Shown in pieces: positions 10,432 through 51,373 of a stretch of DNA of 64,000 nt. Origin of the DNA: Candidatus Methanosuratincola mesotaenarum (GTDB lineage Archaea; Thermoproteota; Methanomethylicia; Methanomethylicales; Methanomethylicaceae); the NCBI GenBank assembly GCA_038801705.1, contig JAULTC010000001.1:169916-233915 (forward strand), in the 5' to 3' direction. Made by a program: the position numbers and the translations under genes. Numbering within the stretch: position 1 is the first letter of the stretch; each line of letters starts with the position of its first letter. The notes beneath the pieces are model-generated. The model worked only from the letters and a program-made list of their open reading frames with translations, was not told the origin of the DNA and ran no database searches.

Positions 10432-10543
10432 CAGTTGCACCTGTGTTACCATTGGATGAGGTGGTACAACCCGGCTGCGATTATCACCTGGGCATAGGGA
10501 GTGTCAGTTGCACCTGTGTTACCATTGGATGAGGTGGTACAAC
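10432..10543. repeat. two identical 39-nt direct repeats (10432-10470, 10505-10543) bracketing a 34-nt segment identical to the 3' end of the trxB-like gene
   Basis: Read directly: CAGTTGCACCTGTGTTACCATTGGATGAGGTGGTACAAC occurs twice. The intervening sequence (37 nt counting the CAG shared with the second repeat) equals 28669-28705. See the finding of the same coordinates. Confidence 0.8.
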
Positions 10544-11158
10544 GGTGACTGCAGATTGTTCTGGTTGAGTTTTTATTTTGAAGAATGCAATCGCAATCAG
10601 AAGCATAGAAATCCAGATAAGAAAGAATCCTATCAGAAGTATCGTCAGAAACGCGCCAATGAGCATTGTCAATCCTGCCGTTGAAAACAGACCCACGTTT
10701 GTTTTTGATGAAAGAGTGTTTAATGATCGTCTGACAAAGAGGCTTGCAATTATTACAGAGGCCCACAGGATCAGAATTACTGAAACTAGTCTTGCTAGAA
10801 AAGGATAGAGATCACTAATGCCTATATTTGAAGGGTCAGGCATTAATCCTGGAAGGGTTGACCAGTCGCCGTTCCAGTCCGGAAAGATCTGGTACAGGAA
10901 GTCTGTCAAGGTAGTTAAAAATGAGAGGACAATCACTGCGCCTGCAACCACTGCACCAACGATGCCTACAATCGTCCCATAAAAGAAATTGCTGAAGATC
11001 TTCCTTTCCCTGTAAATACCTGCAAAACCATAAAGGGCGACCAGAACCAGTATCAGGCCTATGAGTGCAATTATTCCCATGTATCCGAATGGCATCACTC
11101 CGATTAACATCAGTATTGTGCCTATGCCGCCTAAGGCCTTATTTGATTCTAAGGTCAT
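10484..11158 (-). CDS. polytopic membrane protein of unknown function; 3' end altered by the 39-nt duplication/insertion
   Basis: 224 aa with about six hydrophobic helices. The present stop codon lies inside the trxB-derived insert. Without the insert the ORF would end ...QVQLPVNNP. Confidence 0.55.
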   Translation of the reverse strand: MTLESNKALGGIGTILMLIGVMPFGYMGIIALIGLILVLVALYGFAGIYRERKIFSNFFYGTIVGIVGAVVAGAVIVLSFLTTLTDFLYQIFPDWNGDWSTLPGLMPDPSNIGISDLYPFLARLVSVILILWASVIIASLFVRRSLNTLSSKTNVGLFSTAGLTMLIGAFLTILLIGFFLIWISMLLIAIAFFKIKTQPEQSAVTVVPPHPMVTQVQLTLPMPR

Positions 11159-11554: not shown

Positions 11555-11881
11555 TTGGTAATGCGCAATAAAACTCCTGTCAAGTGCCCCAACTGCGGAT
11601 CGGAGATGACTGGCATTGGAAGGCAGACAATTAGGACGGGGCCGGTAAACGAGGCAATGTGGCTGCTGGTCTACCCGGACGTTGGAGTCCCGGTTGCATT
11701 CGATGCATACGTGTGTGAGTATTGCGGAAAATTCGAGCTGTTTGCGGATGAAAATGCCGTTAAGATGCTGAAGGGGGAATATGCCGGCGACGAATTGGTG
11801 AAGTGCAGTTCTTGTGGAAAGGAGTACATAAAAGAGTACTGGAGATGCCCGTACTGCGGGGCGGAAACGAAAAAAGGTTAG
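11555..11881 (+). CDS. small double zinc-ribbon protein
   Basis: 108 aa with four CxxC pairs: CPNC, CEYC, CSSC, CPYC. TATA-like TTATAAATAA lies about 100 nt upstream. Confidence 0.6.
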   Translation: MVMRNKTPVKCPNCGSEMTGIGRQTIRTGPVNEAMWLLVYPDVGVPVAFDAYVCEYCGKFELFADENAVKMLKGEYAGDELVKCSSCGKEYIKEYWRCPYCGAETKKG

Positions 11882-11936: not shown

Positions 11937-12006
11937 CTGACGTACTCCCACGGCTAAAGCCTGTGGGCTTGCCTTCGTTATCCACCTCATGGCCCCATTA
12001 TCGTAA
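11937..12006. repeat. 70-nt intergenic repeat element, copy 1 of 3
   Basis: CTGACGTACTCCCACGGCTAAAGCCTGTGGGCTTGCCTTCGTTATCCACCTCATGGCCCCATTATCGTAA. Two other copies at 26553-26622 and about 50760-50829 differ by no more than 2 nt. Confidence 0.85.
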
Positions 12007-12076: not shown

Positions 12077-12715
12077 TTGCATGAGGTCACCGGTATGGGA
12101 ATTAGCATAGAGAATAAATTTTCGAGGGAGATCAGGAGCTTCTTTTCGCTTGCAGTAATCAACATCGCATTCAGCGGAATAGCGATGGCGATCGGGGTTT
12201 CCCTGGCAGTCACCAATATCCTAGCGCTCTTGGACGGGTGGTCGGTTATCAACATCGCAGCTTCAGCAGTCGGGATCGCAGCATTCGCCCTTGCGATCAG
12301 ATGGCTCATTGCAGTCGCAGAGCTCCTGAGCGGGGTTGATGATATAAAAGACGAATATTCCAAGGTGAAAGGAAACCAGAGCCCCAAAGCCCTGACGGGG
12401 CTGATAGTCAGGCTGACGGCGCACTACCGTTCAAATAGGCAACTGATATCGAGGCTCATCCTGCTCAGCAGGGCAGCAGGGGTCTGCTTCATAGCCAACG
12501 GCGCTCTCCTCCTCCTGCAGATGGCGCTCAATCTGCCTGCTGATTGGACGGGCATTTTGGCTTCCCTCGCGGCTGCGGCTGTGAACTTCGGCGTGGGGGT
12601 GGCTGGGATATCCATCCCTCACTTTTTCAAGAGGTACTCCTCGTGCTGGGAGGTAAGACTCAAAGAGATCACCCAAGCAGAAGAGGGGCTGTCCGTGATC
12701 GTGGGGAGAGAATAA
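12077..12715 (+). CDS. membrane protein of unknown function
   Basis: 212 aa with four or five hydrophobic segments. Stop overlaps the start (TAATG) of the downstream wHTH gene, suggesting co-transcription. Confidence 0.55.
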   Translation: MHEVTGMGISIENKFSREIRSFFSLAVINIAFSGIAMAIGVSLAVTNILALLDGWSVINIAASAVGIAAFALAIRWLIAVAELLSGVDDIKDEYSKVKGNQSPKALTGLIVRLTAHYRSNRQLISRLILLSRAAGVCFIANGALLLLQMALNLPADWTGILASLAAAAVNFGVGVAGISIPHFFKRYSSCWEVRLKEITQAEEGLSVIVGRE

Positions 12716-13156: not shown

Positions 13157-14203
13157 TTGCACGACCCGCTAGACGAGATTTGTGAAGCGCTGAGGCGTCA
13201 CCTGGAGCTTCCAGCTGGAGGAATCGTATCCGGATTCAGCCAGCCCATCGGCGAGGACTCGCTGCAGGGGCTTCACCTGTCTGGCGCGGAGGAGATACCA
13301 GTGATCTCCGCGGTCGACGGCGGATCGAACACACTCCTGAGGACTCCGACGCTGGTGGTGGTGCTGAACAGGGTCTACTACAACCAGTTCCTCGGGATGA
13401 GAAAGATGGACCACTACGAAACTGTGGAGTTCATCTCGAAGACCGAGATAATAGAGAGGGACAAGAGGAACTTCTTCAGAACCGAGGTCTTCCCGCTGGA
13501 GGGACCATGCCTCTTATCACCTATAGAGATAGACCTCAAGGACGAGACCCTGATGGTGGGGACGACCTACGGAGATATGAGCAGGGCTCTCTCGATGGCA
13601 AGAAGGTTCTGCGAGTGGAGGCTCGCGGAAAGGGCGGTGGAAGCCGGAGCGGAGTGCATCCTGATGGATGGAGCGCTCCAGACTGCCTTCAAGGACGAGC
13701 ATAAGGTCGCGAACAAGCTCTACGATAAGGCAAAGGGATCCGGATCGATCGTGGCAGGGCTTTCGAAGAGTACAACGATATATCTGGCTAACGGATTCCC
13801 GCTGGCAGGGACGGTGGACGAGATGGCCAGGAGGAAGGGGTACCCTAGGTGGATAATAAAGCTCGGGGAATCCGAGGAGTGGACCCATAGGGCGACCGTG
13901 TACTATGCGAAGCTCCATGAAATGGCCGACAGTGGGTACAGGCTTGACGTATTCGAGGGTGCAAAAGAGGAGGAGGTCGAGGGGCTGTTGAGGGGGCTGC
14001 TCGCCTGCTCGACCTATTTCGGGTATCCCGGTTATCCTTACCCGCTGATAGACGCGCATACCTATGCGAAAGTCGGACAGGCAGAAGCGGACGGGTTCAG
14101 GGCCCAGATCCTCGACAGGCTAGGCTGGGATGAATGCAGAAAGCTCGAACTGATGGAGCGGGCCCTGATGCAACACGGCGTTTTAGACTCATTGGGTGGT
14201 TGA
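13157..14203 (+). CDS. nurA: NurA 5'-3' nuclease
   Basis: SAVDGGSN and CILMDGALQ match the NurA catalytic Asp motifs. Directly upstream of herA. Confidence 0.8.
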   Translation: MHDPLDEICEALRRHLELPAGGIVSGFSQPIGEDSLQGLHLSGAEEIPVISAVDGGSNTLLRTPTLVVVLNRVYYNQFLGMRKMDHYETVEFISKTEIIERDKRNFFRTEVFPLEGPCLLSPIEIDLKDETLMVGTTYGDMSRALSMARRFCEWRLAERAVEAGAECILMDGALQTAFKDEHKVANKLYDKAKGSGSIVAGLSKSTTIYLANGFPLAGTVDEMARRKGYPRWIIKLGESEEWTHRATVYYAKLHEMADSGYRLDVFEGAKEEEVEGLLRGLLACSTYFGYPGYPYPLIDAHTYAKVGQAEADGFRAQILDRLGWDECRKLELMERALMQHGVLDSLGG

Positions 14204-14206
14204 GAT

Positions 14207-15817
14207 ATGGAAAAGGAGACGGATGTTGAAAGCCGTGAAGTGGAGTATGTTGGGCAGATCGTATCTGGGAACGACAGCGAGTTTCTGCTGAGGGAGAAGC
14301 AGGGGGCAAAGCTCGAGCTCGGCGACTTGCTGGTCGTGGACAACGAAGGTGTGAAGTACATATGTATGGTCTCCGAGCTTAGCTACGGGAGCCTTATTGC
14401 TCCGGAAAGGATCCTGACGAGCGCGGGGAGCATTCTCGAGGGGGTGAACCCTAGGCTAGAGTTCCCTGAGAAGGACCTCAGGATCTTCCGCCAGATCCAC
14501 ACCAAGCCGCTGCTAGAGGTTATCTCCGAGGGCGAGAGGATGGCAGGCAGGGCGCCGAGGAGCATCCCCGAGTTCATGTCGAAGGCCAGGGTGGCAGAAG
14601 CCTCAGACTTCAGTTTCATGGAGGAGCCGAGGACAAAGGTCTTCATCGGGGACATCAGGAGTGGGGGAAAGACGCTCCCTGTCGGGTTCAGCATGGACGG
14701 AGAGAAACTCCTCTCGCACCATGTGCTCATCTCCGCGCAGACCGGAAGGGGCAAGTCGAACTTGGTCAAGGTCCTGCTCTGGGAGGCTATGAAGCACGAA
14801 AAGTTCGGGGTACTGGTGATGGACGTCCATAACGAGTACTACGGGACTACAACCTCACCTGGACTGAAGGACCACCCCAACGCCAGAAGAGTGTTGAGGT
14901 ACTACTCGAGGAGCCCCCCACCTGGGGGGCAGCTGCTGAAGATCAACCTCAAGTCCATCGATGTGGACGACCTGAAGGGAATCGTCGAGTTCACCGAAGC
15001 ACAGGAGGGGACCCTCGAAATGCTCAGGAGGGAAAAGGGGGCGGAGTGGATCTCTGCACTGCTCGAATGGAGCGAGGATGAGAAAGGGTCTAGGAAGCCG
15101 ACGGGAACGATCCGCGTGCTGAAGCGCAAGATATGCAATATATTCAACCTGAATGAAACTCCCGCGGGTTACGTCTGCGAGGACGGGGTCTTCGACCTCG
15201 GTGGGATGGGCGAGGAGACCATCAACGACATGGCGAGGGCGCTTGAGGACGGAAAGGTCGTGCTCATCGATGGCTCCTCGATCTCTGACGACGCTGGGCT
15301 CGTGATAGCGAGCGCGGTCATCAGGAAGCTCTTCGACAGATACGAGGAGTACAAGCTCTCTGGCACCATCCACGAGAAGGCGCAGATCGGGGTCGTGCTC
15401 GAAGAAGCCCCAAGGGTCCTGGACGTCGCCCATGGAGGCAACATCTTCAGCAGGATCGCCCGCGAGGGGAGGAAGTTCAAAATAGGGCTCATTGCGATCA
15501 CCCAACTTGCATCGGTGATACCCAAGGACATCCTGGCAAACATAGGGACGAAGGTCATCATGGGGAACGAGATGGCGCAGGAGAGGAGAGTGTTGGTGGA
15601 GAACGCGGCGCAGGACCTCAGCGGCTATGACAGGATAATTGCTGGTCTTGAAGTGGGCGAGGCGATAGTCAGCTCGATATTCTCCAAGTTCCCAGTCCCG
15701 GTCAAGATTCCGAAGTTCGAGGAGATTGCCGGCAGCTCCAAAGCCCAAGGGCGAGGGCAGACCCAAAAACAAGCCGAGACACCAAACATGCCGCCTGTAA
15801 GGAAGACGTACTTCTAG
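14207..15817 (+). CDS. herA: HerA DNA helicase (FtsK/HerA ATPase)
   Basis: Walker A ISAQTGRGKSN and Walker B VVLEEAPRV; 536 aa. Between nurA and mre11. Confidence 0.85.
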   Translation: MEKETDVESREVEYVGQIVSGNDSEFLLREKQGAKLELGDLLVVDNEGVKYICMVSELSYGSLIAPERILTSAGSILEGVNPRLEFPEKDLRIFRQIHTKPLLEVISEGERMAGRAPRSIPEFMSKARVAEASDFSFMEEPRTKVFIGDIRSGGKTLPVGFSMDGEKLLSHHVLISAQTGRGKSNLVKVLLWEAMKHEKFGVLVMDVHNEYYGTTTSPGLKDHPNARRVLRYYSRSPPPGGQLLKINLKSIDVDDLKGIVEFTEAQEGTLEMLRREKGAEWISALLEWSEDEKGSRKPTGTIRVLKRKICNIFNLNETPAGYVCEDGVFDLGGMGEETINDMARALEDGKVVLIDGSSISDDAGLVIASAVIRKLFDRYEEYKLSGTIHEKAQIGVVLEEAPRVLDVAHGGNIFSRIAREGRKFKIGLIAITQLASVIPKDILANIGTKVIMGNEMAQERRVLVENAAQDLSGYDRIIAGLEVGEAIVSSIFSKFPVPVKIPKFEEIAGSSKAQGRGQTQKQAETPNMPPVRKTYF

Positions 15818-15835
15818 GCGGGTGGTGATAAGGAG

Positions 15836-17203
15836 ATGAGGTTCGCGCATATGGCTGACCTCCACCTAGGGGCAGTCTCAGACCCGAAGATGAAGGAGCT
15901 GGAGGTCGCCACTCTTGAGAGGGCATTCAAGATATGTGTCGAGAAAGAGGCAGACTTCGTGATCATCGCCGGGGACATCTTCCACACCAATGTCCCGGAC
16001 CTATCGGTAGTGAAGGCTGCCTTGGGGATCTTCAAGAAGTACGTCGATACGGGCAGGAAGATCTACGTGGTCTACGGCAGCCACGACTTCTCCCCGAACT
16101 CGACCTCGATCATCGACATCCTCGAGGCTGCAGGGATATTCGTAAGGGTCGGGAAACCTGAGGTGGTCGACGGGAAGCTAAGACCAGAGGTGGTCACGGA
16201 CTGGAGGACAGGCGCAAAGATCACGGGGATCTCCGGGAGGAGGACCTCGTTGGAGAAGGAGGCATTCGACGACCTTGACAGGGATTTCCTGAAAGGGATA
16301 GATGGTCCTAAAGTATTCGTCTTCCACACCGGGATACTGGAGATGAGGAAGGAAGGGGAAAAATTCGACGGGATCTCCCAGAGCATGCTTCCCGAGGGGT
16401 TCGACTACTACGCCGGCGGACATGTCCACAGAATCTTCGTTGATCCGAAGCAGGGCAGAGTCGTCTTCCCAGGGCCGCTATTCACCGGCTGGGGCGTAGA
16501 CCTGGAGGCTACCATTATGGGCGAGAGAAGGGGCTTCTGCATGGTCAATTGCCAGTACGGAGAGAAGCCAGAGGTGGAGTTTGTGGATCTTAAGCCCTTC
16601 AATGGAGTCCACAAGATCATCGACGCGTCCGGGATGTCTGCATCCGAGCTTAACGAGGAGCTCATGTTGTGGGCAACCGACGTCGACGTGAAGGGGAAAG
16701 TCGTGCTCCTCAAGGTCTTCGGCGAGCTCTCATCGGGGAGGACGAGCGACATCGACTTAGGTCTGGTCAGGGAGATGCTGATGGAGAGCGGTGCGATCTA
16801 CCTCCACCTGAACAGGAACGGGCTCAGGACAAGGGAGATGGCGGCAGTGACCGCCATCGGGGAGAGCGCAGATGAGATAGAGAGGAAGATCTTCAAGGAG
16901 ATGGCAGGAGCAGTGAAGGACCTTGACGGGAAGGCGATTGAGGACGAGCTCGAGGTAGCTGCGAAACTCCTGACATGCCTGAGGAGACCTAAGCTCGAGG
17001 GTGAGAGCCAGGAGGACTATTTCTCGAGGTTGGACAGCGAGACGATGGGGATTCTCGGACTGTTATCAGGAGAAGAGGAAGAGAGGGGCAGAGAGAAGGG
17101 GGAAAAAGAAAAGAGGAACGCAGAGGAGAGAGAAAAAACTGCAGTCGGGCAGCCCGCTCCTGAAGGGAATACACCAAGAAGGAAGGGGTGCACGAGACGA
17201 TAA
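15836..17203 (+). CDS. mre11: Mre11 DNA double-strand break repair nuclease
   Basis: Calcineurin-like phosphoesterase motifs: HMADLHLG, IIAGDIFH, VYGSHD, GGHVH. Overlaps the rad50 start. Confidence 0.9.
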   Translation: MRFAHMADLHLGAVSDPKMKELEVATLERAFKICVEKEADFVIIAGDIFHTNVPDLSVVKAALGIFKKYVDTGRKIYVVYGSHDFSPNSTSIIDILEAAGIFVRVGKPEVVDGKLRPEVVTDWRTGAKITGISGRRTSLEKEAFDDLDRDFLKGIDGPKVFVFHTGILEMRKEGEKFDGISQSMLPEGFDYYAGGHVHRIFVDPKQGRVVFPGPLFTGWGVDLEATIMGERRGFCMVNCQYGEKPEVEFVDLKPFNGVHKIIDASGMSASELNEELMLWATDVDVKGKVVLLKVFGELSSGRTSDIDLGLVREMLMESGAIYLHLNRNGLRTREMAAVTAIGESADEIERKIFKEMAGAVKDLDGKAIEDELEVAAKLLTCLRRPKLEGESQEDYFSRLDSETMGILGLLSGEEEERGREKGEKEKRNAEEREKTAVGQPAPEGNTPRRKGCTRR

Positions 17204-19263
17204 TCAAGTCGATCAGGCTCAAAAACATCCGGACATATGAGGAGGAGGAAGTCAAGCTGCCCGAAGGGATTATACTTTTCGAGGGTGGCATAGGCGCCGG
17301 CAAGTCGACGCTGCTCCTCGCCATGGAGTTCGCGCTCTTCGGGCTCGGGAACGAGAAGGGGACAACACTGCTGAGCCTCGGTAAGAATTCCGGAAGAGTC
17401 GACCTAACCTTTGAGGTCGGAGGTAAGGAAGTCAGGGTATCGAGGTCGCTGGAGAGGGTGAAGAAGCAGGCTGCGGACGCAATGCACCAAGGGCTTCTCT
17501 TGCCCCAAAGCGTCAGGCAGTACGATTGCTGGATAGAGTACAACGGCGCCCGGACTTCTTACTCCCCGAAGGAGATGAAGGAGCAGGTCCTTAAAATTTT
17601 GAACTACAACGAGCCGACGGACCCTAAGGCAAAGAGTGTCATATTCAGGTACGCGGTCTACACCCCGCAGGAGGAGATGAAGGAGATCCTCTCACAGCCA
17701 CCTGACCTGAGGCTCCAGACGATTAGAAAGGCACTGAGGATCGAAGATTATAAGGTAGCGATGGAGAACGCGAGGGCGATAGCTGCTGACCTGAGGAAGC
17801 AGGCGGAATACACTAGAAAGACCGTGGAGCGCCTCCCGGAGATACGCATGGAGATCAATAAGATCAAAGAGAGGCGCCCTGTTCTCGATGGCAAGTTGGA
17901 GGAGATAATCAGGGAGGCGGAGGCGGTAGATATTGAGCTTGCACGGCTGAAGGGAAGGAGGGAGGAGATCCACTCGGAGCTGCTCCGCTACGCCAAAGAC
18001 GCGAAAGATGTGGAACAGATCGAGGACGACCTTGAAAAGGCGAAGGCTGAGATCGGAAGGCTAGAGAAGGAGATTGCCCAAAACAGGAAGAGGCTGGATG
18101 GGATCCGTGCGCAGATTAAGATACTCGAGTCAGCAAAGGAACCCATGATGTCCGAGGAAGAGGTCGAGGGTTTTCTTGAGGATGCGAAGGCTAGACTTAG
18201 CGAATGCGATGGGCTACTTGGAAAACTCGAGGCTGAGCTGAGCAATATTAGGACACTTGTGATGAATGGGTACTGCCCCACATGCAACAGGCCGATAGAC
18301 GGGGCAGAGTACGAAGCTCACCTCAGGGAGGCAGAGAGGAATTACGAGGATGCAAAAGAGAGACGCGAGGATGCGAAGAAGGAGATACAGGCGCTGGAGG
18401 CGAAGAAGAGGGAGATCATCAAGTACGGAAAGATAAGGGAGCAGATGAATGGGCTCAGGGAACTTGAAACCGAGGTCGAGGACAGGATCTTCGATTGGGA
18501 GGAGAGGCTTGGGAAGGCTAGGCAGAGCGAGGCAGAGCTCTCGGAGAGGAAGGCTAAGGCCCTTGTCGCTGTGGAGAGGTACAGGGCCTTGGAGGAGGAG
18601 TATAGAAAGTGTGACGCAGAGATCAGGAAGGAGGAGAAGGAGAGGGATGGGCATCTGAAGGAGAAGGCGAGGCTAGAGAAGGAGATCGCGGTGGACGATG
18701 AGAGGCTCGGGGAGCTCGAGGGGGAGGCTGAGAGGCTCGAAGCCGAGAAGAAAAGGGGGGAGAAACTTGGCTGGTACTCTGAGTGGCTGATGAAGTACTT
18801 TGCGGTGGCGCTGGAGAGGATAGAGCTAACCGTGATGAACACGGTGAGGATGGAATTCGAGGAGGAGTTCGGCAGGTGGTTCTTGTACCTTGTAGAGGAT
18901 CCGTCGAAGGGGGTCAGGATCGACGAGGACTTTACGCCGTTGGTCACGCAGGACTCGTACGAGCAGGACTTGAACAATTTGAGCGGTGGGGAGAGGACCT
19001 CGCTAGCGCTTGCGTACAGGCTCGCGCTGAACAGAGTCGTCCAGAGAAACTCGAAGACAGGGGCGGACCTGTTGATCCTGGACGAGCCGACGGACGGGTT
19101 CAGCAAGGATCAGATAGGGAAGATGGGTGACCTGCTCAGGGAGCTCGGGCTGAGGCAGGCGGTGATCGTATCACATGAGAGGGAGCTCGAGGGTGCAGTG
19201 GACCACATATTCAGGATACAGAAGGATGGCGGGAAGTCGAAGGTGTATGCAGCATCAGGCTGA
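17188..19263 (+). CDS. rad50: Rad50 ATPase
   Basis: Walker A GGIGAGKST, long coiled coil, zinc hook CPTC, ABC signature LSGGERTSLALA, Walker B LLILDE. Confidence 0.9.
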   Translation: MHETIIKSIRLKNIRTYEEEEVKLPEGIILFEGGIGAGKSTLLLAMEFALFGLGNEKGTTLLSLGKNSGRVDLTFEVGGKEVRVSRSLERVKKQAADAMHQGLLLPQSVRQYDCWIEYNGARTSYSPKEMKEQVLKILNYNEPTDPKAKSVIFRYAVYTPQEEMKEILSQPPDLRLQTIRKALRIEDYKVAMENARAIAADLRKQAEYTRKTVERLPEIRMEINKIKERRPVLDGKLEEIIREAEAVDIELARLKGRREEIHSELLRYAKDAKDVEQIEDDLEKAKAEIGRLEKEIAQNRKRLDGIRAQIKILESAKEPMMSEEEVEGFLEDAKARLSECDGLLGKLEAELSNIRTLVMNGYCPTCNRPIDGAEYEAHLREAERNYEDAKERREDAKKEIQALEAKKREIIKYGKIREQMNGLRELETEVEDRIFDWEERLGKARQSEAELSERKAKALVAVERYRALEEEYRKCDAEIRKEEKERDGHLKEKARLEKEIAVDDERLGELEGEAERLEAEKKRGEKLGWYSEWLMKYFAVALERIELTVMNTVRMEFEEEFGRWFLYLVEDPSKGVRIDEDFTPLVTQDSYEQDLNNLSGGERTSLALAYRLALNRVVQRNSKTGADLLILDEPTDGFSKDQIGKMGDLLRELGLRQAVIVSHERELEGAVDHIFRIQKDGGKSKVYAASG
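19150..19250. repeat. 101-bp direct repeat, copy A (the 3' end of rad50); copy B at 20784-20884
   Basis: CTGAGGCAGGCGGTGATCGTATCACATGAG...AAGGTGTATGC is identical at both sites. The two copies bracket 19251-20783. Confidence 0.85.
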
Positions 19264-19514: not shown

Positions 19515-20705
19515 TTGAGGATCTTGGACTCAGTGCGTGAGAGGCAGATCATGATAATCACAGGGCTCAGGAGGACGGGCAAGACTACCCTCATGTACCA
19601 GGCGATCGAGAGGCTGCTTGAGACTGAGGATCCGAGGAAGGTGCTCTACTTCTCCTTCGAGGAGCCGTCTCCTGGGCCCAAGGAAGTCGAGCACTATGAG
19701 AAGGGGGTCCTGAGGGAGCCCTTTGAGGACGCAGGGAGGATCTACGTCTTCTTTGATGAGGTCCAGTACGCCAGCGGCTGGGCATCGACCATTAAGCGGT
19801 TCTATGACCTATACCCAAACCTTAAGTTCTTCGTCTCCGGTTCGTCCTCGCTACTGCTCTCAAAGGAGGCGCTGGAGAGGCTGGCAGGGAGGTTCTTCTT
19901 CCTCGAGCTGAAACCCCTGACTTTTTTTGAATTTCTGGAGATGAAGGGGGCTGAGGTTGGGAGGCTGGAAGGATCCAAGCGTAGGGCGGAGATCCTCTTC
20001 TCGGAGTACCTGATGAAGTCAGGGTTCCCCGAGCTCGCTGGTTGGGGGGACGAGGCGAAGATCGCGGAGTACATCAGGAGCGTGGTGGTGGACAGGGCGA
20101 TCCTGAGGGACATACCGGTGATCTTCGGGAGCAGGGACATCGAGCTGTCCGAGAGGCTGATGGGGTTGATACTCCCGAACCCCGGGATGATTGCAAACGT
20201 CAACGCGCTATCCGAGAGCCTCGGGAGGAGCAGGATCACCGTCTCGAACTACCTGAGGTACATCGAAGCTTCCATGCTTGTTAGGTCTCTCTCTAACTTC
20301 AGGCCGGCGATCCTCTCCTCGTCCAGGAAGCTGAGGAAGGTCTACCCGGCGGCGCCCTCACTCATCTTTGCCTACGACAGGGAGGCTTTCAAGGAGAGCG
20401 CAGGGGCTGTGCTCGAGACGTACGCTGTGGGCGCACTTGGAGCCAGGCATTATTTCAGGGAGGGTAGAAAGGAGGTAGACATGATCCTGAAGGGAGGGAC
20501 TGGCGGAAAGGAGATCCTGCCCGTGGAGGTCAAGACGAGCGTGGGCGAGAGGGACTTGAGGAAGTTTTCTGGGCTGGTGGAGTATGTGGGTGCGAGGAGA
20601 GGCATAATGATCAGTCTCAACCAAGCGTTTAGCAGCGGCAATGTCGAGGTGTACCCAGCCTACTATGCCGAGAGGATCTTCCAACATGAAGCCACAAGGG
20701 AATGA
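19515..20705 (+). CDS. COG1373-type AAA+ ATPase with C-terminal DUF4143 (PD-(D/E)xK nuclease-like) domain
   Basis: Walker A GLRRTGKTT and Walker B VFFDEVQ. C-terminal EVDMILK...LPVEVK is a D...ExK nuclease-like motif. Preceded by an AT-rich promoter region. Confidence 0.8.
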   Translation: MRILDSVRERQIMIITGLRRTGKTTLMYQAIERLLETEDPRKVLYFSFEEPSPGPKEVEHYEKGVLREPFEDAGRIYVFFDEVQYASGWASTIKRFYDLYPNLKFFVSGSSSLLLSKEALERLAGRFFFLELKPLTFFEFLEMKGAEVGRLEGSKRRAEILFSEYLMKSGFPELAGWGDEAKIAEYIRSVVVDRAILRDIPVIFGSRDIELSERLMGLILPNPGMIANVNALSESLGRSRITVSNYLRYIEASMLVRSLSNFRPAILSSSRKLRKVYPAAPSLIFAYDREAFKESAGAVLETYAVGALGARHYFREGRKEVDMILKGGTGGKEILPVEVKTSVGERDLRKFSGLVEYVGARRGIMISLNQAFSSGNVEVYPAYYAERIFQHEATRE

Positions 20706-20783
20706 GGCGGCCGCTTGCTCTAATCATCTGCAAAAGCGCTCATAGGACTAGCCAGCTCATGGTTCCAGAATAGATGCAGATGG

Positions 20784-20884
20784 CTGAGGCAGGCGGTGAT
20801 CGTATCACATGAGAGGGAGCTCGAGGGTGCAGTGGACCACATATTCAGGATACAGAAGGATGGCGGGAAGTCGAAGGTGTATGC
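20784..20884. repeat. 101-bp direct repeat, copy B (orphan duplicate of the rad50 3' end)
   Basis: Identical to 19150-19250 but not joined to any rad50 coding sequence. Confidence 0.85.
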
Positions 20885-26552: not shown

Positions 26553-26622
26553 TCTGACGTACTCTCACGGCTGAAGCCTGTGGGCTTGCCTTCGTTATCC
26601 ACCTCATGGCCCCATTATCGTA
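26553..26622. repeat. 70-nt intergenic repeat element, copy 2 of 3 (2 substitutions)
   Basis: Same orientation and same ends as copy 1; differs at two positions (C to T, A to G). Confidence 0.85.
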
Positions 26623-26815
26623 ACTTCGAGTTGACTTCGATATACTCGATAATGCGGCGTAGCTCGTCGGCAAACTTACCGTATGCCAATGTCGCCACCT
26701 TCGTATACCTTGATATGGTCAACCAGTTCAATCAACACTTCCCTTGTCAGCTTGAATAAAATCCATCAGCGTGTAATGCTCCCTCCATTTCGACACTTCT
26801 GATTTTTTTCTCTGT

Positions 26816-28598: not shown

Positions 28599-29549
28599 TT
28601 AATACAACATCACGATCGGCTTCTTTTTTATATAGCTGTAAGCCGTAAGCGCTGCTGCTGCCCCCTGACCGGCTGCGATTATCACCTGGGCATAGGGAGT
28701 GTCAGTGATGTCCCCTGCTGCGAAGAGCCCTTCGCAGCTGGTTCTTCCAAACTTGTCGGTTATTACCTTGCCCGCAGGATCCCTCTTGACGAGGTGCTCC
28801 ACATAATCGAGTTTGACGTCCCTCCCGATGTCTAGGAAGAGCGTATCGACCTTGAACTCCTGCTCGAGCCCGGTCTTCAAATTTTTTACCACGACCGACT
28901 CAAGGCATACGCCACCTTTCATTTCAATTATCACGGTATTCAGGAGGAGCTCGACATTTGGGATCGCCTTCACACGTACCAAGGTCGCCTCGTCTCCCCT
29001 GAACTCCTCCCTGCGGTGTATAAGGTAAACCTTCGACGCCTTGTAGGAAAGGAGCTCTGCCCTCTGCAGTGCGGTGTTCCCGCCTCCAACAATAGCTACG
29101 GTTTTTCCGGCCATCCGATCGAGATCGCACTTGAGCGAGATATTCACGCCCCTCCCCAGAAGCTGGTCTTCCCCTGGGACGCATAGCTTCCTCGGCTTTC
29201 TTCCCCCCGTCACTATGACCGCCCTCCCATAAAAGACGCCGGCTGTGCTATGAACACGGAAGAGGTCTCCATCTTTCTCGATCCTTTTGACCTCGGCCGT
29301 CACGAACTCCGCCCCGCTTATCCTTGCCTGGTTTTCAAAGGCTGCAGCCAACTTAATTCCGTCAGTCTCCAGGTACCCCAAGTAGTTATCGATGTGCTCG
29401 GTCTGGAGGATCTGGCCGCCGATGTCCATACTTAGTACTAGCGTGTCCAGCAGCCTCTTCCTTGCATAAACTGCAGCAGCAAGACCGGCCGGTCCTGCGC
29501 CGACAATGACAACATCATAGGCAAAAATATGCGCCACCACCGAGATCAT
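28599..29549 (-). CDS. thioredoxin-reductase-family flavoprotein with non-canonical active site (SxxC instead of CxxC)
   Basis: FAD motif VVIVGAGPAGL, NAD(P) motif IVGGGNTA, and TrxR C-terminus GDITDTPYAQVIIAAGQG. By gap-free alignment to E. coli TrxB, the CATC position reads SLKC. Confidence 0.75.
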   Translation of the reverse strand: MISVVAHIFAYDVVIVGAGPAGLAAAVYARKRLLDTLVLSMDIGGQILQTEHIDNYLGYLETDGIKLAAAFENQARISGAEFVTAEVKRIEKDGDLFRVHSTAGVFYGRAVIVTGGRKPRKLCVPGEDQLLGRGVNISLKCDLDRMAGKTVAIVGGGNTALQRAELLSYKASKVYLIHRREEFRGDEATLVRVKAIPNVELLLNTVIIEMKGGVCLESVVVKNLKTGLEQEFKVDTLFLDIGRDVKLDYVEHLVKRDPAGKVITDKFGRTSCEGLFAAGDITDTPYAQVIIAAGQGAAAALTAYSYIKKKPIVMLY

Positions 29550-49738: not shown

Positions 49739-50668
49739 TCACCCCTCTTCATTTACAGCTTTGGCGTAGATTTCCTCAAGTGTTGCCTCGCCCTTTCTTA
49801 CCTCCTCCACCTTCACGCCGCTATCCAGGAGCCTGGCCACAATTTCGGAAGTATCAGCACTTGTGTCAAGAGTGAGATGAATGGTGTGACCCTCACGGCG
49901 GCAGTCTTCTATATAGGGCAGGGCTCTAAGCTCAGCCAAAATGCTGTCAAGTCGAGGGTTTGCCACCGTTTCTATTATTACCTCCCTACGACCTACCTCC
50001 CTTCTTAGTTTTTCCAGTTCTCCATAAAGCTTTATCTTCCCCTTATCGATGAGAGCGATGCGGTTACATATCCGCTGCACCTCGTCCAGATTATGAGAGC
50101 TCAAGAAAATGGTCTTACCTAGGTTGTGTGCCATATCCAATATAATCTCCCTTACTTCGATTTGCCCTGATGGGTCAACGCCAGCCGTGGGCTCGTCCAA
50201 GATAAGAAGATCAGGATCATGTACCATAGCCCGCGCCAGGGCAAGCTTCTGTCGCATGCCCTTGGAATAACGGGCTACTTTATCATCTGCCCTATCCCCC
50301 AGGCCAACGCGCTCAAGTAGTTCTTTGATCTTGCTTCTAGCATGGGCTCTGGGAACGCCATATATCTGGGCGTAGTAGTCCAGATTGTCATAACCAGTAA
50401 GATTATCATAAAGCCCATCAGCCTCAAGGACAAAGCCAACCTTTTGTCTGGCTTCATCCTCTGAGACATCTTTACCCATAACAAAAGCCCTACCAGAGTC
50501 GGGCTTGAGTAACCCCAGGATGACCTTTATAGTAGTCGTCTTGCCTGCGCCATTGGGACCAAGGTAGCCAAAGATGTCCCCTGGCTCCACAGCAAAGCTG
50601 ATACTTTTTAAAATCTCATGATCTCCCAGATTTTTGCTTACCTGTTCTAAACTTATAACCGAGTCCAT
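49739..50668 (-). CDS. ABC transporter ATP-binding protein
   Basis: GPNGAGKTTTIKV, SKGMRQKLALARA, LILDEPTAGVD. Confidence 0.85.
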   Translation of the reverse strand: MDSVISLEQVSKNLGDHEILKSISFAVEPGDIFGYLGPNGAGKTTTIKVILGLLKPDSGRAFVMGKDVSEDEARQKVGFVLEADGLYDNLTGYDNLDYYAQIYGVPRAHARSKIKELLERVGLGDRADDKVARYSKGMRQKLALARAMVHDPDLLILDEPTAGVDPSGQIEVREIILDMAHNLGKTIFLSSHNLDEVQRICNRIALIDKGKIKLYGELEKLRREVGRREVIIETVANPRLDSILAELRALPYIEDCRREGHTIHLTLDTSADTSEIVARLLDSGVKVEEVRKGEATLEEIYAKAVNEEG

Positions 50669-50759: not shown

Positions 50760-50829
50760 CTGACGTACTCCCACGGCTAAAGCCTGTGGGCTTGCCTTCG
50801 TTATCCACCTCATGGCCCCATTATCGTAA
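50760..50829. repeat. 70-nt intergenic repeat element, copy 3 of 3
   Basis: Identical to copy 1. Lies between an ABC ATPase gene and the LEA14-like gene. Confidence 0.85.
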
Positions 50830-50914: not shown

Positions 50915-51373
50915 ATGAGTGGCAAAAAGGTATTGGTCTTAGTGGTCGTGGCAGCCCTTATCGTAGCTGGGTTCGCTTACTACGAGTGGATGAAGGTGGA
51001 GGCACTCAACTCCTGCGAGGTGGAACTCGTCGGCGTAAATGTCGAAAGCATCGGCACCACGGCAGTGGTGCTGGAATTGAACTGGAGTATCTACAACCCG
51101 AACAGCGTGACCGCGACTATGGACAATGCGACTTACACTATCTTTGCAAACAACATAACCCTTGGCAACGGGGTTGCTCCCGGGATAGCTGTGCCTCCGG
51201 GCGAGAACAGCACGTTGGTAACAGATTTAGAAGTTGCCTACGAGGATGCCTTTGAAGCGATATGGTCTGCCCTTGAGGCTGGGAATGTGACGTGGAGGTT
51301 GAACGGTACGGCATATTTCAATACCCCCTTGGGAGCGTTGGATGTTCCTTTCGACCGAACACTCTACCCATAA
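50915..51373 (+). CDS. LEA14-like / WHy-domain protein with N-terminal membrane anchor
   Basis: N-terminal hydrophobic anchor, then WHy-domain pattern ...LNWSIYNPNS...YTIFANNITLGNG... Confidence 0.65.
   Translation: MSGKKVLVLVVVAALIVAGFAYYEWMKVEALNSCEVELVGVNVESIGTTAVVLELNWSIYNPNSVTATMDNATYTIFANNITLGNGVAPGIAVPPGENSTLVTDLEVAYEDAFEAIWSALEAGNVTWRLNGTAYFNTPLGALDVPFDRTLYP

Follow-up and report, generated by a model that had tools for sequence, protein, structure and literature searches.

The 70-nt sequence that occurs three times in the window (the whole 64-kb stretch of Candidatus Methanosuratincola DNA analyzed here) is a real repeat but an ordinary one, and it is not a new kind of element. Each copy is very probably the gene-less stump of an IS200/IS605-family element of the IS608-like type, which inserts 3' of TTAC, and as such can be termed a 'terminal-only PATE'. 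The repeat has a subterminal imperfect palindrome, lacks a terminal inverted repeat and a target-site duplication, and is too short for a transposase. The stump encodes nothing, the part of the guide-RNA scaffold that is left is too small to serve TnpB, and a host function is most likely absent. We infer that the element inserted in this genome, and screening of the 64-kb window by tblastn with three TnpB and two TnpA proteins detected neither tnpA nor tnpB; a full-length parent element was likewise absent from the window.

Among the three candidates offered by an initial annotation made from the letters of the window, the 'MITE-like element' comes nearest, in that the repeat is a gene-less, non-autonomous transposon derivative, although of the IS200/IS605 (PATE) type rather than a classical MITE, a class that we rejected on the grounds that the repeat has neither terminal inverted repeats nor a target-site duplication. 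The other two candidates, a small-RNA gene family and att remnants, were not supported. That annotation had also allowed that the repeat could turn out to be no more than IS debris, and this is essentially the outcome.

Copies, ends, and anatomy of the repeat

A search of the window that allowed up to three mismatches to the 70-mer returned three matches, all on the plus strand and with 0, 2, and 0 mismatches, respectively, whereas none was found in 100 dinucleotide-preserving shuffles. Copies 1 and 3 are 100% identical, and copy 2 is two substitutions apart. When the copies were aligned with 300 nt of flank on each side, identity extended from CTGACG to ATCGTAA with unrelated sequence beyond, such that the ends are sharp. 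The copies are direct repeats in one orientation, spaced 14.6 and 24.2 kb apart, and BLASTN-short, nhmmer, and degenerate-pattern searches revealed no further full, partial, or diverged copies in the window. The initial description of three intergenic, near-identical, and co-oriented copies with sharp ends and no more than two substitutions was thus confirmed by the search and the flank alignment. The starts that it gave for copies 1 and 3 (11937 and about 50760) are correct, and that of copy 2 (26553) is shifted to 26554 (Table 1).

The flanks of the three copies have nothing in common and no direct repeat, and no target-site duplication was found. The 70-nt repeat has no terminal inverted repeat, as had been noted from the letters and as is borne out by the flank alignment and the repeat search. 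This absence fits the IS200/IS605 (PATE) type because such elements have subterminal hairpins and, by definition, no inverted repeats. Folding of the repeat showed that the imperfect hairpin proposed initially is real, and ARAGORN identified no tRNA or tmRNA, in agreement with the earlier impression that the repeat is not tRNA-like.

On the minus strand, the repeat comprises the TTAC target (4 nt), a 35-nt linker, a 21-nt hairpin, and a 10-nt tail. TTAC is common to all three copies, and the flanks diverge past it. The two substitutions of copy 2 change the loop to TTCA and one base of the 3' arm (G>A, yielding GTGAG), which weakens the hairpin; its hairpin is of the type GGC-TTCA-GCCGTGAG.

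Table 1. Positions of the three copies, their parts, and neighboring genes in the window
Feature	Position	Strand	Description
Copy 1, whole	11937-12006	-	Probable 66-nt fused-end IS200/IS605 stump plus TTAC target
Copy 1, tail	11937-11946	-	Right-end tail AGTACGTCAG, 10 nt, ending in right cleavage tetranucleotide TCAG
Copy 1, hairpin	11947-11967	-	Subterminal imperfect palindrome CCCAC(A)GGC-TTTA-GCCGTGGG; 8 bp and one bulged A, from folding
Copy 1, linker	11968-12002	-	Left-end-type (by architecture only) linker GATAATGGGGCCATGAGGTGGATAACGAAGGCAAG, i.e., GATAATGGGGCCATGAGGTGGATAACGAAGG-CAAG; 35 nt, CAAG in guide position
Copy 1, TTAC	12003-12006	-	Target and left cleavage tetranucleotide; GTAA on the plus strand
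Copy 1, neighbors	11555-11881; 12077-12715	+; +	Zinc-ribbon gene and membrane-protein gene, with copy 1 between them
Copy 2	26554-26623	-	Tail 26554-26563, hairpin 26564-26584, linker 26585-26619, TTAC 26620-26623
Copy 3	50760-50829	-	Tail 50760-50769, hairpin 50770-50790, linker 50791-50825, TTAC 50826-50829
Copy 3, neighbors	49739-50668; 50915-51373	-; +	Divergently oriented ABC-ATPase and LEA_2 genes, with copy 3 between them

Copy 3 and the same flank junction were recovered in an independent Logan assembly of SRR25293830, where contig L001 begins with exactly 30 nt of the repeat. If that assembly was built with k = 31, as we take it to have been, the start of the contig would fit a de Bruijn break at the repeat. 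A search for an empty site or conserved synteny by way of homologs of the ABC-ATPase returned nearest relatives that were 78-79% identical in protein and not syntenic, and other homologs that were bacterial. A literature search for Methanosuratincola together with transposase found no paper.

A frameshifted ORF remnant (26624-26810, minus strand; LTREVLIELVDHIKVYEGG / KFADELRRIIEYIEVNSK) has copy 2 at its 3' end. With the element removed, the reading frame runs EYIEVNSKLQVG to a stop codon, and TTAC lies 9 nt before that stop. The initial annotation had seen these frameshifted coding remnants correctly but had taken them to be the possible decayed cargo of a mobile element. We rejected the cargo reading since the ORF pieces lie outside of the repeat and their weak match to DUF4368 is below threshold (E 0.002, 18.9 bits versus a cut-off of 25). 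They are not shared by copies 1 and 3 and are flanking (target) sequence. The remnant may be the decayed C-terminus of a recombinase.

The window is part of an archaeal chromosome, with NurA/HerA/Mre11/Rad50-like genes, pur and his genes, and acetyl-CoA synthetase. Proteins of the NurA/HerA/Mre11/Rad50-like operon (13157-19263) score far below NCBIfam equivalog cut-offs (for example, 81 bits versus 800 for HerA). The Rad50-like protein has just 691 aa, and the set represents divergent forms or paralogs of the archaeal repair proteins. Positions 19148-19250 and 20782-20884 form a perfect 103-nt direct repeat that corresponds to the 3' end of the Rad50-like ORF (17188-19263), duplicated 1634 nt downstream, and a single gene encoding an AAA_14/DUF4143 ATPase (19515-20705, plus strand) lies between its copies. 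The layout resembles that of an insertion through which the end of the gene was duplicated or restored on its 3' side. At the 3' end of a DUF996 gene (10484-11158, minus strand), positions 10432-10543 are arranged as A(39 nt)-B(38 nt)-A(39 nt), and B is matched perfectly by positions 28669-28706, which lie 18 kb away within a Pyr_redox_2 gene (28599-29549, minus strand); the arrangement may be the scar of a templated insertion or a duplication.

Right and left ends compared with known elements

The prototype of this type of element is IS608 from Helicobacter pylori, for which the cleavage sites are TTAC on the left and TCAA on the right. Its transposase, TnpA, recognizes subterminal imperfect hairpins, with the left cleavage site being the target tetranucleotide, ~19 nt 5' of the left hairpin, and the right cleavage site located 10 nt 3' of the right hairpin (PMC3597680). 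A guide tetranucleotide immediately 5' of each hairpin foot, AAAG on the left (GL) and GAAT on the right (GR), pairs with the cleavage site of its own end (PMC3597680). The repeat in the window is like IS608 in its TTAC left target, its subterminal imperfect hairpin with a bulged base, and a right cleavage site 10 nt from the hairpin foot (TCAA/TCAG), and its relatives share the GAAT/TCAA guide rules. However, IS608 has two hairpins, two guides, and both tnpA and tnpB, whereas the unit in the window is without genes and has a single hairpin and a single guide, CAAG, which matches TTAC imperfectly.

Comparison of the 70-mer to plasmids by BLASTN revealed matches only at its hairpin end, i.e., within the first ~37 nt of the plus strand. 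Matches in Halorubrum, Geoalkalibacter (29 of 29 nt), and Rhodothermus lie on the strand opposite to an annotated TnpB gene, 0-30 nt from its stop codon, and an IS200/IS605 tnpA adjoins in two of the three. It follows from the opposite orientation of these TnpB genes that the minus strand of the window is the transposon sense and that the hairpin end is the right end (RE), and the functional strand is therefore not the one on which the repeat had been written by the initial annotation. The plus strand had been considered as an RNA strand on the grounds that the C>T change in copy 2 keeps a G-U pair; it was dropped because homology gives the minus strand as the transposon sense.

The motif GGCTTTAGCCGTGGGAGTAYGTCAR was identified at 20 loci in IMG/VR, and at 11 of these a tnpB identified by tblastn ends 6-102 nt upstream. 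Similarity at the tnpB-linked loci always stops directly past TCAA or TCAG, which is where the repeat in the window stops as well. Pairing of guide and cleavage site was obeyed in all 14 tnpB-linked ends (11 from phage and three from plasmids), comprising GAAT with TCAA (n = 8) and GAAC with TCAG (n = 6). In contrast, units without tnpB never had GAAT or GAAC and carried AAAG, GAAG, or CAAG in the guide position, with the exception of L021 (AAGC). The single guide of the unit in the window, CAAG, does not pair with its right cleavage site TCAG, for which GAAC is required. It pairs with TTAC at two of the three positions of the IS608 rule, which would expect TGAC, and one Haloferax element has CAAG as the guide of a right end that carries TGAC.

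The hairpin of copy 1 has homologs in the right-end hairpins of tnpB-linked elements and in the terminal hairpin of the Rfam family HgcC (RF00062). The right-end region of the full element from Halorubrum (L003) matches HgcC over the whole model at 46 bits (E 1e-9; 1.7e-7 in a whole-locus scan), and in the alignment the hairpin and tail of the repeat fall on the last hairpin of that model (UUUA loop) and on its AGGAGGUCAG tail. HgcC has been linked to the sotRNAs at the 3' end of IS1341-type tnpB (PMC4615843), and we take it to be the omega-RNA of this TnpB clade. The unit in the window is homologous to HgcC, the sotRNAs, and the omega-RNA of IS1341-type TnpB in its UUUA-loop terminal hairpin and its A-G-x-A-x-GUCAG tail, yet ~100 nt of the HgcC scaffold and the adjacent tnpB are missing, and it gives no covariance-model match. 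On the Halorubrum plasmid (L003; 2488-2632 and 116-299), the IS605 right end scores 46 bits against HgcC, just below the gathering score of 50, and a second IS-linked RNA, sot0042, is a strong match (161 bits). Rfam HgcC thus covers part of this omega-RNA clade and misses many of its members.

The left part of the unit is a probable left end, as judged by its architecture. In the Halorubrum element, the left end has the form TTAC-19 nt(..AAAG)-hairpin, and left ends in Haloferax, where it is located upstream of the tnpB start, Natrialba, and Natronosalvus have the form TCAC-18/19 nt(..GAAG)-CCCACGGCTTTAGCCGTGGG. At two phage loci (L030 and L034), the left end reads TTAC-GCTGAACGGAAAG-CCCACGGC-TTCA-GCCGTGGG-ATGATG and is followed by tnpB. 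TTAC was likewise found 5' of the left end in L003, L030, and L034 and in the solo units described below (L024, L027, L033, and L037).

Four phage loci (L018, L024, L027, and L033) comprise solo units of ~50 nt in which the right-end tail AGTATGTCAA comes after the left linker and hairpin of L030/L034; these units lack tnpB and lie in unrelated flanks. One solo unit (L027) and one full element (L030) are on a single 203-kb phage contig, IMGVR_UViG_3300028797_000098, and another solo unit (L037) was identified in a Desulfovibrionaceae MAG. In these solo units, the left end is joined to the right end through one hairpin, and the phage family shows this fusion directly; the repeat in the window has the same architecture. 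Like these five units, that in the window has T(T/C)AC, a linker ending in an xAAG-type tetranucleotide, the same hairpin, and a 10-nt tail; however, their linkers are 13-18 nt in length, end in AAAG, and are unrelated to the 35 nt of the window, and their tails end in TCAA. Fused-end IS605 stumps of ~50 nt with the form T(T/C)AC-GCTGAACGGAAAG-hairpin-AGTATGTCAA are present in large phage genomes. A genome scan for solo-type units gave two matches, none of them in relatives, and did not find the parent element.

The 35-nt linker had no homolog in any collection searched, and a 21-mer from it was absent from 185,579 GTDB species representatives and from IMG/VR in exact searches. The lone match to this 21-mer in JGI metagenomes (L002, 2428-2448; contig Ga0075154_10051584) is limited to the 21-mer itself, with flanks unlike the element, and is just 3' of an intron-containing tRNA gene on an AT-rich contig; we judge it to be due to chance.

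Close counterparts of the unit are the 52-bp terminal-only PATEs of Haloquadratum walsbyi, which occur in HqIRS46 and ISHwa23 forms and arose when deletions between near-terminal palindromes of 19-22 bp shortened a PATE and the 1.5-kb IS1341-type ISHwa23 (Dyall-Smith et al., 2011; PMC3119063). As in those elements, the unit is gene-less, lacks a terminal inverted repeat and target-site duplication, has one near-terminal palindrome between terminal sequences, and occupies several loci. It is longer (66 nt versus 52) on account of its 35-nt left linker, its host is a methanogen of the Thermoproteota rather than a haloarchaeon, and its parent element was not found. PATE-like minimal elements have also been reported by Meers et al. 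Gomes-Filho et al. (2015) described an 'RE-like tetraloop' in sotRNAs and HgcC, together with VNG_R0052 of Halobacterium salinarum, an expressed RNA that consists of part of a left end (LE) fused to an RE, and such fused LE-RE units are common in haloarchaea (PMC4615843). The unit in the window resembles VNG_R0052 in that what is probably part of a left end is fused to a right-end stem-loop with an 8-bp stem and a UUCA/UUUA loop, as in HgcC and the sotRNAs. Expression and an effect on growth have been shown for VNG_R0052.

Origin of the copies and alternative readings

In the origin that we propose, a full-length element with tnpA and/or tnpB would have inserted 3' of TTAC through TnpA-mediated, single-strand 'peel and paste', and its core would have been deleted between the two near-identical subterminal hairpins, which would have served as direct repeats and left one hybrid hairpin. 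Such core deletions may have taken place independently in different insertions, with copy 2, at the least, arising separately from copies 1 and 3. We lean toward independent deletions because both differences of copy 2 fall in the loop and 3' arm, as would result from a different crossover point, and because the unit is without a guide that matches its own right cleavage site. The TTCA loop of copy 2 is that of the two readable phage left-end hairpins (L030 and L034). However, the haloarchaeal left ends examined have TTTA loops, which runs counter to the crossover argument for copy 2, itself a matter of two bases. GC skew was considered as a test of lagging-strand insertion bias and was set aside as unreliable here.

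Alternatively, a 66-nt mini-element with a single hairpin might have arisen once and spread to the three sites as a unit, mobilized in trans by TnpA (a Y1 HUH transposase), which would make it an extremely short active PATE. We consider a single origin of this kind to be possible rather than probable. The identity of copies 1 and 3 favors it and speaks against independent deletions, as does the presence of three stumps and no full element in 64 kb, and the unusual CAAG guide and the bulged A are common to all three copies. Data from Haloquadratum hint at mobility of stumps as well, in that all six strain-specific ISHwa23 insertions are of the 52-bp form and the authors suggested that the stump might itself be mobilized (Dyall-Smith et al., 2011; PMC3119063). 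Moreover, IS608 tolerates longer left linkers, with 27 nt being functional (PMC3597680). On the other hand, with one hairpin and one guide, canonical cleavage of the right end would not be templated (CAAG versus TCAG, where six of six tnpB-linked TCAG ends have GAAC), and the changes in copy 2 cluster in the loop and 3' arm, as another crossover would produce. A specific form of the claim, in which the single-hairpin stumps are active substrates and a Y1 TnpA excises and inserts the 66-nt unit through non-canonical recognition of the right cleavage site, strikes us as rather unlikely.

We consider it very unlikely that the copies are a family of small-RNA genes, i.e., orphan omega-RNA/HgcC-like guides for a TnpB encoded elsewhere or PATE-derived regulatory RNAs adopted by the host. 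The hairpin and tail do correspond to the 3' end of HgcC, omega-RNA genes are reportedly frequent in PATEs (Meers et al.), and the PATE-derived VNG_R0052 is expressed in Halobacterium, where its overexpression improved growth (PMC4615843). However, only the last 31 nt of the HgcC scaffold, or ~31 of ~130 positions, are present, and cmscan gave no match even at E ≤ 10, compared to 46 bits for the full element L003; across Rfam, nothing was detected at gathering scores in the whole window or at E ≤ 10 at the locus. A structured RNA was rejected, as the unit forms one hairpin only and folds no better than shuffles (z -0.7 to +0.7, and -1.4 to +0.7 across RNA and DNA folding of both strands with and without flanks). 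A promoter-like A/T box just upstream on the minus strand was not seen by eye, absence of the linker 21-mer from the species representatives gives nothing to suggest conservation, and the window has no tnpB that the unit could overlap or follow. To the reading of the copies as att-site remnants or boundaries of integrated elements we attach next to no probability. The arrangement of the copies, co-oriented direct repeats with spacings of 14.6 and 24.2 kb, would suit it, but the window has no tRNA, tnpA, or tnpB, and there is no recombinase among the annotated ORFs (a subset of all ORFs). Further, the intervals between copies hold core metabolic and repair genes (NurA/HerA/Mre11/Rad50-like genes, acetyl-CoA synthetase, and other chromosomal genes), and the sequence is demonstrably an IS200/IS605 end. 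Domesticated repeats of the REP/RAYT type, in which single hairpins are handled by a housekeeping Y1 enzyme, have in common with the unit a single hairpin, a conserved 5' tetranucleotide, and the enzyme superfamily. Nevertheless, such an identity is hardly credible given the homology to transposon ends beside tnpB and the solitary, co-oriented copies, without inverted doublets (REPINs), a GTAG-type head, or a Y1 gene in the window.

Implications for annotation and for the host genome

Assignment of the copies to gene-less IS200/IS605 stumps explains a repeat that is left unlabeled by Rfam, tRNA, and ORF tools, and its value is mainly one of annotation. The repeat may explain breaks in short-read assemblies at these sites, and its copies are inexpensive strain markers. 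In addition, the guide rule may separate stumps from live ends, with GAAT/GAAC and TCAA/TCAG marking tnpB-linked ends and xAAG marking solo units. For the organism, the finding indicates past activity of IS200/IS605 (TnpA/TnpB) elements in a Ca. Methanosuratincola genome. If stumps with a single hairpin were themselves active, they would bridge IS200/IS605 elements and REP-type repeats as a living intermediate, and genomes of the Methanomethylicales would continue to acquire insertions from them.
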